Shown: positions 2,311-48,700 of the stretch, one piece after another
How the letters are laid out: every line of letters starts with the position of its first letter
Numbering within the stretch: the stretch's first letter is position 1
Assembly: GCA_964016885.1 (NCBI GenBank)
Contig: OZ024743.1
Coordinates: 256,122,001 to 256,186,000 of the forward strand
DNA: 64,000 bases
Reading direction: 5' to 3'
Source: Eledone cirrhosa
Taxonomy: Eukaryota
Notes under the pieces: model-generated
Database searches by the model: none
Seen by the model: only the letters and a program-made list of their open reading frames with translations
Told to the model about the DNA's origin: nothing
Made by a program: the position numbers and the translations under genes

Positions 2311-2397
2311 GGGTCCGTCGAGCTGCCGATTATTGAGTCGGGTAGGAGCGATATAGATCGAACCTTGAGCTGATCAGTGGCGAAACGCGCGTCACCT
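2311..2397 (+). ncRNA. Degenerate type I hammerhead ribozyme (family A)
   Basis: gggt-CCGTCGA(core with 2 substitutions)-gctgccgatta...tgatcagtggc-GAAA-C-GCGC-GTC-acct. The homolog at 48462-48540 keeps CTGACGA but has lost GAAA. A half copy lies at about 25650-25735(-). Confidence 0.65.
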
Positions 2398-2892
2398 ATC
2401 AATAAATGCAATGAAGGAATAATCAATCGTCCTTTTTATCCTTTCTGTATTTTACACTCTGTATAGCTCTACACATCATCACAGAAGTGAACCTAAACAT
2501 CGAGTGCTCACCCGGGTGAGCCTGCAGTAACTCCTAGTTACACCCACTGGATATGTGTATATATATATATGTGTATATATATGTGTGTATATATATATAT
2601 ATATATATATATATATATAGTAAGGAAATGTGTGACCTCGACGGCAGAGCTCAAGCCGTTTCGACGGCTATTTTGGTCCAGAAATAGCCCTCGAAACGGC
2701 TTGTGTGTACTACCCACACTACTACCCTAAGTATTGAGTACTCTGGTACGTTATGGTCCATCTTGTTCCTTACCACAATTCCTTCATTATATATATATAT
2801 ATATATATATATATATATATATATATATGTCCCAAGGCTCTGATACCATCAACACCAGAAACACAGAGCTGGCATATCTAAGAACTGACTAT

Positions 2893-2946
2893 CTGCCTGA
2901 TGAGGTCATAGCCATTCAATGGCTATCATCGAATTATATATTGCAG
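2893..2946 (+). ncRNA. Type I hammerhead ribozyme with one core substitution (A15.1>U)
   Basis: ctgc-CTGATGA-ggtcatagcca/tggctatcatc (stem II)-GAAT-T-ATAT-ATT-gcag, then AATAAA. Sits in a ~165-bp insert (2829-2991) flanked by (TA)n. Confidence 0.7.
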
Positions 2947-3200
2947 TAAATAAAGGATTATGAGTTCATGCAAGTGACTTATGTTTCGTCACTATATATA
3001 CATATATACATATGTGTATAAATATATATATATATTTATATAAGCAAAGAGATATTTAATTTGTTGGTTATTCAACAAATTTATTTATAACAGATTCGAA
3101 GCACTCTACGGTTTTCCTGGATATTTATATATATATATATATTCATATATATATATATATATATATATATATATATATATATATATATATATATTTATAT

Positions 3201-3680
3201 ATGAATGTATGTATAGTATATTTGGCAATATACCGTATGTTTAAATAAAAATAATTAGAAGACAATACGCTATAGGTTTTAAAGCAGTGATTTTGTCACT
3301 TCTTTTCGGCGAAAGAAGGGAGAGAAGCTAACATTCTGTTTCATACTGTTTTGCGATCTTCAGAGCCCCGCACTCCCTGCTTCTGCCGAAAATTATAGAA
3401 GCTGGATTCTCATAGAATTCCTGTAATAATCAGGAGCTTATTATACAGAGAGATTGCCGATCCAGCATAAATTAGGTATTAGCATTGGTGCTCTGAAATA
3501 ACGATGTATACATGAATGTATGTATTGGCAATATACCGTATGTATAATGAAAAACATTTTGAAGACCATACCCTATCGGTTATAAAGCAGTGACTATGTC
3601 ACTTATTTCTTTTCGGCAAAAGAATGGAGAGAAGCTAACAGTCTGTTTCACGCTGTTTGGCGATTATCAGATCCACTGCG
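3201..3680 (-). mobile_element. Diverged ~1.5-mer of the ~310-bp HHR repeat family (family B, retrozyme-like relic)
   Basis: Two HHR motifs 307 bp apart: 3324-3369 ggggct-CTGAAGA...GAAA-cagaatg-TT-agcttc, and 3631-3674 with core CTGATAA. Shares tgctctgaaata.cgat, aaacattttgaagacc and ttgccg.tcc.gca.aaattag with the 4731-6680 array. Confidence 0.75.
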
Positions 3681-3879
3681 TATAAAGGATTACAGCTGCA
3701 TAAAAAAGTCAAGATTGCTCAAAATCGTTAAAAGCCTTGGAGTGGGGAGACCCAGCAATACCTGGGATGATGTGATAGAAACAGACCTTGCCTAAATTGC
3801 ACCTCTCAGAAGAGATGACACATGAGCGGGATCTCAGGCAATAAGCGGTAACACAGAAGACCCGGGTTCCCATGAGCAC

Positions 3880-44664: not shown

Positions 44665-44915
44665 ATCATCATCATCGTTTAACATCTATCTTCCACGCTA
44701 GCATCGGTTTAGACGGGAATTGTCCCACTTGAGGCAAGATTGGTTGTCTTGCTCGTATAGGACTGTCTGGCAGGTTTTCTACGGCTGGATGCCCTTCCTA
44801 ACACCAACCATGTTTACAGTGTGGACTGGGAGGTTTTTACCGTGTTACCTACACAGCCACATTACAACCTGGACTGTGTGTTTTTTTTGTCGTGACACCT
44901 ACATGATCTCCTTTA
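44665..44915 (-). mobile_element. SINE/LINE 3' end fragment
   Basis: Reverse complement of 43200-43445. Confidence 0.8.
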
Positions 44916-45125
44916 TATAGGACTGTATATATATATAAATATATAATCAGAAATATAGACAATATGGGGTCAAATGAACCATAGACAGCTCAATGATTAA
45001 TTGTAAAAAAAAATTAAATTCATAGCAGTATATATAAACAATTAAATAACATGTTTTGACATGCAAAACAAAGCGAGACGTGAGCGAAATAAATTTCAAG
45101 TAAAGATTTTTACACTCACATCAAT

Positions 45126-45220
45126 TTCCCTAACTGCAGTTCAAAATGCAAGAACAATATTAATTATCTTAATCAATGAAAACAATTAATTTTGCAAGAG
45201 ATGTTTATCATCAGAGGGAA
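45126..45220 (-). ncRNA. Type I hammerhead ribozyme with a 1-nt core deletion
   Basis: ttccct-CTGATGA-...-GAA(-)-C-TGCA-GTT-agggaa. Perfect 6-bp stem I, palindromic loop 3, stem II eroded. Confidence 0.65.
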
Positions 45221-45620
45221 TCTTCAACCATAAGGAAATATATACATGTAATACAAAGAAAAATATTCACCAGTCATCAAATACATTATCGCATGCATTA
45301 TGAGATGGCTTGGATAAAAACAGTTCTAGTCCTGTAGAAGCTCTTCTATATATATATATATATATAAATGAAAGGTATAGAAATTGTTTTAGCGAGAAGC
45401 TAACAGTATTCTATAATATATATGCGACTATGTCGTCAAGATGGGAAAGATAGTTAATGTAAGATGTAGGAAAAAATAATTCAAACTCATCTCAAAAAGA
45501 GAATCAGGATACAAATTCATCCACAGAATTTAGTGAAATCCAGGGAAAAATCAATAGACCCTTAACTCATGATAAAATAAATTTAAAACACTTATCCTTC
45601 AATTTGGAAAAACATCAAAT

Positions 45621-45700
45621 GCTCTGTATAGTCTTAAAGACTATTTCGTGAAAACTTTCAGTGGAGATGGTCACGGTTGGATTTCAATCGTCAGCAGAGC
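45621..45700 (-). ncRNA. Type I hammerhead ribozyme (family C) in (TA)n-flanked element from 45366
   Basis: gctctg-CTGACGA-ttgaaa...tttcac-GAAA-tagtct(tta)agacta-TA-cagagc. Stems I and III perfect, U.C at 10.1/11.1. Confidence 0.87.
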
Positions 45701-48700
45701 TCAACAGATAACCAGGGCTACCACAGAATTATAAGACAAAAAGGGAATTCTAAAACTGGCTAGTTCACCATCATGCGTCATTATGAAAAGCGCACATGAG
45801 GAAAAACGGGGCTAGTGACGTCAGAATGAAAATGAGTGTTTGTTTACAAGAAATAACAGTCAAATACATTATCACATTTTTATTGTTTTCGTGAAATTTT
45901 TACTTCTTTATATTCATGGATGTGTGTACAATATATATATATATATATATATATATATATATATATATATATATATATATCCTGTCTTTATTTTGTACTC
46001 CTGAAGAAGGGCTTAAGCCCAACAAATCAATCTTTCTTTCCTCTTTTCCATAGAAAGCATGAAACTAATAAGACTTGTGTACCTTTGTTGTCTCATTGAA
46101 CTATATATATATCCCATTAGAGCTGTAATAAAGTATTTATGACCATTTTAGAACTTAATGTAGTGTTGATGTGAATATCACATTGTAACAAAATGAAATC
46201 TATTTTTGTCGAAAAATGACATCCCCAAATATGTTGTTTAGTTTTCAAACCTACATAGACATAGACAGCTGAATAGATGTGATTTCTTGAGACTAATGAT
46301 ATGGAGTTACTTAACTGCCACCAATTACTCTACACATTGTTAATTGTTTCTCACTGAAACGCTCATAAACAATAGTAACTACTTCATATCTTATTCTTTC
46401 ATTGTTTAAAATTATAATATCTTCATCATTGTTTAACATCCATCTTCCACTCTAGCATAGGTTGGATGGTTTTGTCCCACTTGAGGTGAGATTAGTTGGG
46501 AGACTGTGTCTCTCTCGTACATAACTGTCTCTCGCAGGTTTTTTATAGCTGCATGCTCTTCCTAACACCAACCACATATCAAACTCATGACATGTCTGTC
46601 TGATGACTCTGTAAACACAGGTGAAGTTCCAATGTAAGAGGACACTGACAGATACTATATATATATAGTATTATCATGGATAAATCAGTGTTCTGTCACA
46701 CTGGCAATTCACCTGTATGATTACACAGTCATCAGACAGCCATGATGTGAGTGCATTGTGTCCCTGCACAAAACGCTTTATTTTACATTGCTTCAGTCGA
46801 AAACTGAGTTGAACCTGTGAGTCAAGGGTCAGCCTTGTCACACAGTGTGGCATGCTGAATTTTCATGAGAGATAAGAGCTACATTGATGGTACATGTGTC
46901 TGTGGGATGCTCAACAACTTGCATGCTAATTACATGAGCAGGCTACACTATTGATCAAACTGAAACCCTTGTCATCAGAACTAACTGTGTACATGTATGT
47001 ATGTGTGTACATATATATATATTGTAGGCATATACATTCATGTACATATCTATGTATGTATAAACATATACATATCTGAATAGAAATGATGGCGTCTCAC
47101 TGCCTCATAGGTATTAACATTCTAATCTGTTGGTATGACACAGATTTGTTTCTTTCCATTTTAATGTCATTTTTTTCTTAGATAACATTTATATTTACCG
47201 ATTCTCTTAAGTGCAGTAGATGATTCATGAATAAATTATTGTTTTCCAGAATTTATTTCCAAATTATCTTCAATCATAAATAAAGACATTAGTCCTCAAT
47301 ATACTGGGATTCACACACATCATAGACACAAACTACCAAGATCTTATCACCTCCTCACCAGCAGCTGCACCATCACTAATATCACAGCAACCAGCGCCAG
47401 CCTTACCAGTGCCACTGACATTCCTCCACTACCACCATCACCACAATCAGCACCAATATCTCCAGTGTCCCTGCCACCCTATCCACCAGTATCACCAGTG
47501 TCTGTTTTCTTCTGGAATGTTCTTGTTGTTGATGTTGCTTTAGTTGTTTTATTTGATATATTTTTTATTTGTGTTTATGTAATTCATGTCCATTATCACA
47601 TTTTTATTGTTTTCGTGAAATTTTTACTTCTTTATATTCATGGATGTGTGTACAAATACATATATACACTAAGAATGATATATATGAATATACTCACACA
47701 CAACTACATATTCTCGGACCGGGTGATGTGTTGTTTCCTTGAGCAAGACTTTATTTCACATTGCTCCAGTTTACTCAGCTGTAGAAATGAGATGATAGGA
47801 CTGGGGTCCTTATCATTCCACTGCAAAGTTGTTGTGGCGGTACCACGACAAAAAAGCACCCAGCCCACACTGTAAAGTGGACGTGTAGGCGCCATGGAAA
47901 AAAAAAGCACCCAGCATTCACCGTAAATGAGGCTGGTGTTAGGAAGGGCATCCAGCTGTAGAAATCAAGCCAGAATCAGTTCCTCTATGAACAAGACAAG
48001 GTCAGCCCACAACAGGACAACCCGCCTAACCCATGCTAGCATGGAAGAATGGACGTGAAATGGTGATGATATATATATATATATATATATATATACATAC
48101 ACACACACATATATCTACACACACACACATATATATAGAAACATATTTACATACATATATTTGAATTTGTACCACATACATATATATATATATATATATA
48201 TATGTATATTTATATATGTATTATTTATGTATGTAATACAAAATTCTTAATTTTGGTGATGAAATATATTGTTATTATTGTTGTTATGGGAGTGTAAACA
48301 AGAAGTTCTGTGAGAAAAGACAGAAGTTGTAGAAAACAAGTAAACTTTATTTCGATCCCAAAACAACAAAATCAAGATGGAATCCATTTATATAGCAATA
48401 TCAATTTACACACACGTGTGTATGTATGTACATATATATATATATATATCATTCCCACAACAGACGTCTGACGAGCTTTCAATTCGAGAGTCGGGCTAGA
48501 TCGAACCTTGAGCTGATAAATAACAAAACACGCATCACTACTCAACAAACGTAATGAAGACTTGACAAATCATCCTTTTTACTATTATTTTTATAATATA
48601 TATAGGGGGTGAATTGGCCGTATTGGTGGAGGTTCGGATGCCATGCTTTCCAGCATAGTTATGCCCCTTTACAGTCTGAGTTCAAATTCAGATTAACTTT

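Follow-up and report, generated by a model that had tools for sequence, protein, structure and literature searches.

The window analysed here, a stretch of 64,000 nucleotides from the Eledone cirrhosa genome (assembly GCA_964016885.1, contig OZ024743.1, positions 256,122,001 to 256,186,000), carries hammerhead ribozyme (HHR) motifs in short segments anchored in (TA)n microsatellites, together with remnants of Penelope-like elements (PLEs) and their GIY-YIG endonuclease (EN). We consider it probable that these sites are the 3′ ends of Hydra-clade PLEs and short non-coding hammerhead repeats, all in (TA)n, and that the non-coding ones are likely to be copied by the same Penelope-type enzyme. Sites are labelled by the positions listed in a first-pass annotation of this DNA (2311, 24537, 45621 and so on), and L-numbers denote genomic relative loci; coordinates are collected in Table 1.

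Hammerhead motifs and their families

With a strict type I HHR descriptor written for this analysis (CUGAnGA, GAAA and UH core blocks with helices I–III in order), we identified ten motifs in the window: six in a 310-bp array and one each at 24537 (+), 25504 (−), 32402 (−) and 45619 (−). The dinucleotide-shuffled control that the first-pass annotation had proposed left the real counts far above chance, with no motif in 98 and one motif in 2 of 100 block-wise shuffles of bases 1–48,850. Among variant cores, U3–A8 alone was enriched (8 versus 0 in shuffles); six mismatched controls gave 0–2, and the U4C, G3–C8 and A3–U8 cores showed no enrichment over shuffles.

The 17 listed sites comprise four intact type I motifs, one complete U3–A8 variant (27882), nine decayed or truncated family copies, two broken copies with their blocks in SGC order (see below) and one unsupported site, 45126. 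Family searches of the genome, in which the best 40 candidates per search were scored and 14–29 loci examined per family, recovered the intact HHR pattern in 28 of 29 loci for 45621, 18 of 18 for 27882, 17 of 19 for 28221, 13 of 19 for 32402, 9 of 19 each for 26356 and 2893, and 14 of 19 for the single family that includes 3324, 3631 and 28350. Because genomic relatives keep the intact pattern, we regard 2893, 3324, 3631, 26356 and 28350 as decayed members of real families.

Chance matching in AT-rich sequence is a scarcely credible source of the motifs. Such a case does exist at 45126, an old repeat with an HHR at the homologous position in 0 of 14 relatives; relaxed scans allowing two mismatches also give weak fits near most listed sites, and an Rfam scan of the window returned no hammerhead at E ≤ 1 and no ribozyme, its matches being microsatellite-driven microRNA only. 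However, shuffled sequence yields almost no motifs, enrichment among variant cores is confined to U3–A8, and the motifs keep a constant spacing to the ends of their families, so that chance is refuted at the family level for 16 of the 17 sites. The hammerhead motifs are real, and self-cleavage is predicted.

Accordingly, the list of full or degenerate HHRs survives at the family level for those 16 sites, as HHR or SGC-order forms; 45126 falls away, and 44000–44270 holds no type I motif. Among the three supposedly isolated 3′ halves, 27882 has complete U3–A8 motifs; the other two, 2634 and 28221, are indeed halves here and belong to families in which complete motifs exist. The count of at least eight unrelated families was, if anything, low: about 11 are represented among the listed sites, despite kinship of 3324/3631/28350 to the array (66% over 165 nt), of 25506 to 45621 (71%) and of 2311 to 48462.

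Hydra-clade Penelope-like elements

Both Penelope EN remnants that had been proposed, at 1277–1636 (−) and 23439–23636 (+), are confirmed. The first returned 53,891 first-look candidates in the genome, and its relatives have open frames of up to 861 amino acids with Hydra motifs; Penelope-type machinery, also part of the first-pass reading, is thus present. The open reading frame (ORF) of locus L160 carries DKT (in place of DKG), CxCX5C and CxxC..E..N..CxH, and in place of RWK it has LWR, with RWR in L161. A C-terminal GIY-YIG EN with the CxCX5C linker, and with CxxC and CxH around E and N, occurs in the L160 ORF and in the ENs linked to 27882, 28221 and 2634; the 23439 remnant shows the C-terminal motif as well. 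A Pfam search gave no match on the PLE ORF. Craig et al. 2021 (PMC8557442) describe DKT, CxCX5C and CxxC..E..N..CxH as Hydra-clade motifs and report that almost all Hydra families insert in (TA)n. Because the L160 motifs are these features, we assign the intact elements to the Hydra clade by motif; an initial identification as Neptune was rejected for the same reason.

Window positions 126–2551 are one truncated, inverted Hydra-clade insertion, with the 2311 motif as its terminal HHR. The 2311 segment is present in 8 of 9 fetched PLE loci and lies downstream of the EN on the same strand in 5. This Hydra family is young (98%) and keeps all three helices; examination of 24 loci (L325–L348) gave 23 matched young copies, 21 of which have the core CCGTCGA. 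The older relatives L168 and 48462 are canonical in the core, 48462 on the 5′ side, its 3′ part being broken. The variant suggests either that the autonomous element can do without cleavage or that CCGTCGA remains functional.

A similar arrangement is found for other families. The 23439 EN remnant is followed on the same strand, at 0.9 kb, by the 24537 motif, and a Hydra-type EN lies 0.55–1.1 kb upstream of the HHR at five loci for 27882, five for 28221 and one for 2634. A long TA block lies between a relative of 2893 (L281) and a nearby EN, which we did not take as a link; no coding link was found for the 2893 family element. We read families 2311/48462, 24537, 27882, 28221 and 2634 as 5′-truncated ends of Hydra-clade PLEs. 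The earlier picture of many non-autonomous passengers is correct in that non-coding ribozyme families exist, but about half of the listed families are truncated ends of autonomous Hydra elements.

These ends vary in form. The 27882 family has complete U3–A8 motifs on both palindrome arms, intact in all 18 relatives, and 28221 relatives have a full HHR with a helix II insert of about 105 nt in 17 of 19 copies, the window copy being inverted at the core. Tails of about 91–135 nt occur on one arm in the PLE-linked 24537 and 27882 and in the non-coding 32402. In the family of 2620–2787, measured from the 3′ end, 36 of 62 copies stop at 125–142 nt, a little upstream of GAAA (120) rather than at the cleavage site (97), and 5 of 62 reach past the 5′ core; the truncation hot spot is in loop II, and subfamily divergence may contribute to it. 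Directly downstream of the Hydra element in L160 is a second, different PLE ORF (6882–9998, +; more than 1,039 amino acids) with an Asn-rich insert and CX4CxxC near its end.

Non-coding retrozyme-like families

The 625-bp family (45621) gave 3,347 candidates over many contigs, the top copies being 95–97% identical, and its copies run from a fixed TA end round a closed 625-bp unit without an ORF. Tandem spacings of 310, 468 and 625–626 bp, with an HHR per repeat, and of 534 bp, with an SGC motif, were observed; the longest stop-free frames are 84 amino acids in the 625-bp unit and 59 in the 310-bp unit. No upstream EN was found in 23 loci of the 625-bp family, 7 of the 310-bp family, 12 of 28350 or 11 of 26356, and an EN occurs upstream in 1 of 17 loci of 32402. 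Because closed non-coding tandem units run from a fixed TA end, the 310-, 468- and 625-bp families appear to fit non-long-terminal-repeat (non-LTR) retrozymes. The 26356, 32402 and 28350 families, with partial tandem junctions, little or no EN link and no full dimers among scored seeds, look the same, less fully shown.

Alternatively, all families could be truncated ends of autonomous PLEs, with tandem arrays produced by local DNA-level amplification and no passengers mobilized in trans. Such an origin accords with the 10 of 47 HHR clusters that already show an upstream EN within the 1.8 kb examined, with the interpretation by Cervera and De la Peña 2014 (PMC4209133) of dispersed single motifs as truncated PLEs, and with the local pLTR amplification proposed by Li et al. 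2026 (bioRxiv 10.64898/2026.07.22.740005). We nevertheless consider it unlikely, given the dispersal of the near-identical 625-bp copies over many contigs and their closed, ORF-less unit beginning at a fixed TA end.

Density across the genome

To place the window in its genome, we scanned a sample of 99 stretches of 10 kb each (990 kb in all), spread over the genome at round-number coordinates. This sample contains 114 strict motifs in 42 of the 99 stretches, in 23 clusters and 59 family-by-stretch occurrences, whereas ten shuffles gave 0–3 motifs. The strict density is about 115 per Mb (bootstrap, 71–172 per Mb). Extrapolating from this 0.03% of the genome to 3.0 Gb, with variant and decayed motifs left out, we estimate roughly 210,000–510,000 strict motifs in 130,000–230,000 insertions. 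A wider descriptor applied to all fetched loci gave 47 clusters, 24 of them single-locus. The largest hammerhead count that we found in print is 126,247, in axolotl (28 Gb), and no earlier report of comparable scale was found in the literature searched, most subscription papers and bioRxiv supplements lying outside that search.

Seen against this sample, the 'exceptional density' first attributed to the window is ordinary: it has 5 strict family occurrences in 49 kb (P = 0.19), and P is 0.08–0.12 for its relic coverage or segment number with a library biased to the window. We therefore rejected the window as a special locus, the density being a property of the whole genome. Sequence assignable to HHR families makes up 6.7% of the random sample and 7.3% of its non-microsatellite DNA; for the window the corresponding values are 14.9% (P = 0.08, window-biased library) and 16%. 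These values are lower bounds that miss unseen families, and some contamination may remain; a first library, contaminated by an adjacent non-HHR fold-back repeat, gave 8.7% coverage before two segments were taken out and five put in. The proposal that much inter-microsatellite DNA consists of ribozyme relics was overstated, at a lower bound of about 7% genome-wide.

Anchoring in (TA)n

The predicted targeting of (TA)n is borne out, and a test of distance to (TA)n shows element ends strongly enriched there. Among the 59 strict family occurrences, 51 have (TA)≥6 within 250 nt downstream, compared with 17.7% of random positions. At the 3′ ends themselves, (TA)≥4 occurs within 14 nt in 66 of 68 copies of 2634, 25 of 27 of 2893, 21 of 24 of 28221 and 34 of 58 of 45621 (background, 3.4%), and most 3′ ends without adjacent TA run on into the next unit or tail of their own family. 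TA is also present at 22 of 23 copies of the 2311 end. The boundaries of 185 family loci have TA on both sides in 142, on one side in 36 and on neither in 7, a count inflated for 27882 by an internal TA tract in the untranslated region (UTR) of that family. In each family the 3′ end is fixed at (TA)n and the 5′ end is truncated at variable points. Head-to-head inversion is seen in many copies, and copies that extend past the fixed end enter an AT-rich, TA-like stretch.

Elements might instead add TA tracts at their 3′ end on insertion, such that the system actively generates microsatellites. Consistent with this, TA is found at nearly every 3′ end, and the 222 of 852 TA blocks (26%) that adjoin a relic are slightly longer than the others (median 40 versus 34, p = 0.001). 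However, this length difference fits target-size bias, longer tracts being larger targets, as well as it fits element-driven growth; 74% of TA blocks have no recognized relic alongside; and randomly truncated 5′ ends also meet TA in most copies, as expected for insertion into an existing tract. We thus judge this alternative quite improbable. Given TA on both sides of most copies and the slightly longer relic-adjoining blocks, proliferation of microsatellites by the elements, which had been suggested for this window, is plausible only as the splitting of tracts.

Hammerheads in SGC order

Two families have their blocks in a different order. The 44000–44270 site consists of two broken SGC-order copies with deletions, from an old family in which the cleavage block is followed by the GAAA block and then the CYGAUGA block. 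Four helices are seen; read by eye, helix II is not formed by the strand after CUGAUGA, for which alignment A1 shows no pairing, and an upstream strand pairs instead. Helices I and III of the 534-bp family are supported by 13 sequences in which 97.9% of cells are paired and 5 of 11 pairs have changed on both sides (slid controls, 33–60%), a covariation score reached by 0 of 500 shuffles, with kinship among the sequences uncorrected. Both window copies are damaged in each family.

A first, untuned SGC descriptor found 1 motif versus 0–1 in ten shuffles and thus no enrichment; a second, tuned after the family had been seen, found 3 in 990 kb versus 0 in 20 shuffles. No upstream coding link was found for either family when tested with four PLE proteins. 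The 534-bp units carry predicted SGC-order hammerheads whose helices I and III show compensatory changes among relatives. As described by Eckert et al. 2023 (PMC10085705), the SGC type was previously almost only metatranscriptomic; SGC hammerheads in chromosomal repeats would extend this fold beyond that setting.

A shared hairpin and a model for mobilization

Just past the short 3′ end, an RCUC..GAGYRCU hairpin occurs in PLE-linked (2311, 2634 and 24537) and non-coding (45621 and 32402) families. It is present in the longest copy of 6 of 40 clusters (0.33 expected) and also in four clusters outside the defining set (1, 10, 17 and 42), with a swap of ACUC/GAGU to GCUC/GAGC. We propose it as a candidate recognition signal.

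Under our preferred reading, in which one Penelope-type enzyme would copy both kinds of element, the GIY-YIG EN would nick (TA)n, and the nicked strand would anneal to the TA-like stretch of the RNA and prime reverse transcription. Most complementary DNAs would stop early, leaving 150–650-bp stubs with the terminal hammerhead still present in whole or in part. The tandem non-coding units (310, 468, 534 and 625 bp) may be cut by their own hammerheads to monomers or circles and then undergo reverse transcription in trans. With every insertion one TA tract would become two, and the new TA ends would serve as further targets, which would account for nesting.

Several observations weigh against this reading. 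The loci included only 1.5 kb of flank, and some 'non-coding' families may be PLE ends with long UTRs; 1 of 17 loci of 32402 has an EN upstream. BLAST found no extended homology between the non-coding and PLE-linked families of the window. The youngest Hydra family has a non-canonical core, and cleavage may be needless for its spread. The hairpin pattern was defined after the window families had been viewed, does not occur in families of the 310-, 468- and 26356-type and has a weak genome-wide enrichment (125 versus 84–117). In addition, the second PLE type (the CX4CxxC ORF in L160) and Naiads also target TA, which makes the mobilizer of each family ambiguous.

A bolder version, which we offer tentatively and think rather doubtful as a whole, is that this is the densest hammerhead load in the papers searched (about 115 per Mb, about 25 times axolotl), that dozens of ribozyme RNAs, some with functional SGC hammerheads, hijack the Hydra reverse transcriptase (RT) through the hairpin past the priming site, and that tract splitting helps to build the microsatellite landscape. 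PLEs are named only as candidates for the retrozyme mobilizer in the accounts of Cervera and De la Peña 2020 (PMC7229834) and Li et al. 2026. In the present genome, young non-coding families have their target and end architecture, and some also a hairpin, in common with intact Hydra ORFs, and trans-mobilization can therefore be tested directly. The scale also matters for repeat annotation. Every motif is missed by Rfam, a 2026 repeat annotation of Octopus vulgaris does not use the word 'ribozyme' in its main text, and 235 hammerheads are listed in the genome paper on the giant squid.

Features of the window

Table 1 Hammerhead-related features of the window
Position	Strand	Feature	Comment
126–1684	−	Inverted 5′ arm of truncated Hydra-clade PLE; GIY-YIG EN remnant 1176–1660	93% amino acid identity to 861-amino-acid ORF in L160; maps on L162; Pfam GIY-YIG below cutoff, E = 0.002
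1802–2551	+	3′ arm of element at 126–1684; HHR 2307–2401, core CCGTCGA; ACUC/GAGUGCU hairpin 2456–2508; (TA)n end	
2620–2787	.	Fold-back stub, 3′ half only, abundant family (2634)	Long copies with U3–A8 HHR; L071 has Hydra-type EN 1.1 kb upstream
2829–2992	+	164-bp 3′ piece of longer element (at least 760 nt); HHR 2889–2950, GAAA mutated	
3222–3680	−	Two decayed copies, HHRs near 3324 and 3629; non-coding family of about 310 bp akin to array	
4148–4681	+	534-bp non-coding unit; predicted SGC-order hammerhead about 4565–4620, 3-nt deletion in helix I	
4728–6670	.	310-bp head-to-head tandem array, six intact type I HHRs	
23420–24636	+	5′-truncated Hydra-type element: EN C-terminal remnant 23439–23636, 3′ UTR, intact HHR 24537–24604, (TA)n end	
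25258–25635	−	Older relative of 625-bp family; HHR 25504–25572	
26208–26500	−	Non-coding family copy; HHR 26355–26402, helix I broken	
27492–27945	.	Head-to-head palindrome, young EN-linked family; U3–A8 HHRs 27671–27780 (−) and 27792–27901 (+); 135-nt tail on one arm	
28024–28340	−	Truncated end, EN-linked family (28221); HHR 3′ half, 5′ core lost at inversion junction	
28345–28545	+	Decayed copy of 3324/3631 family	
30711–30911	+	Second copy of 534-bp SGC family, cut before CUGAUGA block	
32150–32880	.	Fold-back insertion, non-coding family; intact HHR 32402–32486 (−); GCUC/GAGC hairpin in tail	
43880–44310	−	Two broken tandem copies, old family with SGC-order hammerhead	
45366–45860	−	Truncated copy, young 625-bp tandem non-coding retrozyme-like family; intact HHR 45619–45702	
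48450–48590	+	Older relative of 2311 Hydra end, decayed HHR	

The 534-bp SGC family (4148–4681 and 30711–30911) is missing from the first-pass list, as are two further relics. One, at 45300–45346 (+), is a 3′ half from another HHR family, into the TA tail of which the 625-bp element inserted; the other, at 25649–25725 (−), is a fragment of the 2311/48462 family. An abundant fold-back repeat beside TA tracts, with no HHR detected, occupies 22755–23369 and 48597–48822.

Other repeats include LINE remnants at 8150–10805 (+) and 41719–43059 (+), both with an RT and a PHD finger, and at 26522–27310 (+), with a weak RT match, and a Helitron remnant at 37100–40580 with Helitron_like_N and PIF1 matches that adjoins a TA tract. 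The region 35030–36080 (+) is presumably a decayed Tc1/mariner-like transposase, judged by eye from its motifs. A 38/76-bp minisatellite lies at 29963–30390, and a 452-bp satellite (33.5 copies, 99% identity), which begins at a TA tract, fills 48855–64000, with no strict HHR in the scan.

Comparison with known systems

The component kinds are already known. As in the Hydra clade described by Craig et al. 2021, the elements here combine DKT, the CxCX5C linker and CxxC and CxH round a conserved E and N in a single ORF of less than 3 kb with a terminal HHR, (TA)n preference and tandem or inverted ends with a tail on one side. For octopus, TA-preferring Hydra elements are already on record: the supplement of that paper includes the family Hydra-1_Obim, to which we liken ours by description. 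They differ in their many divergent families and very high copy number, in tails of about 90–135 nt (30–40 there) and in one young family fixed for CCGTCGA. Dispersed single motifs from truncated PLEs, the U3–A8 core (known from Schistosoma PLEs) and opposite-strand pairs 100–700 bp apart are shared with the PLE minimal hammerheads of Cervera and De la Peña 2014, which were counted at 2,000–9,000 per genome; the present motifs differ in helix II, where inserts reach about 105 nt.

The non-coding families resemble the metazoan non-LTR retrozymes described by Cervera and De la Peña 2020 and Li et al. 2026 in that their tandem units are AT-rich, measure a few hundred bp and each carry a type I HHR, often with a short palindromic helix III, and in that they co-occur with PLEs. 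In contrast to those retrozymes, they have a fixed 3′ end in (TA)n ('microsatellite' is absent from the main text of the 2020 paper), an estimated load in 3.0 Gb that exceeds the axolotl count, and at least 47 clusters versus 2. The predicted scrambled forms share with the type-SGC, non-circularly permuted hammerheads of Eckert et al. 2023 the order cleavage site, GAAA, CUGAnGA and covarying helices I and III, and differ in occurring in TA-anchored repeats of an animal genome. Relative to the papers searched, what is new is the scale, the predicted SGC-order forms with compensatory changes in chromosomal repeats, and a hairpin partly shared by autonomous and non-coding families.

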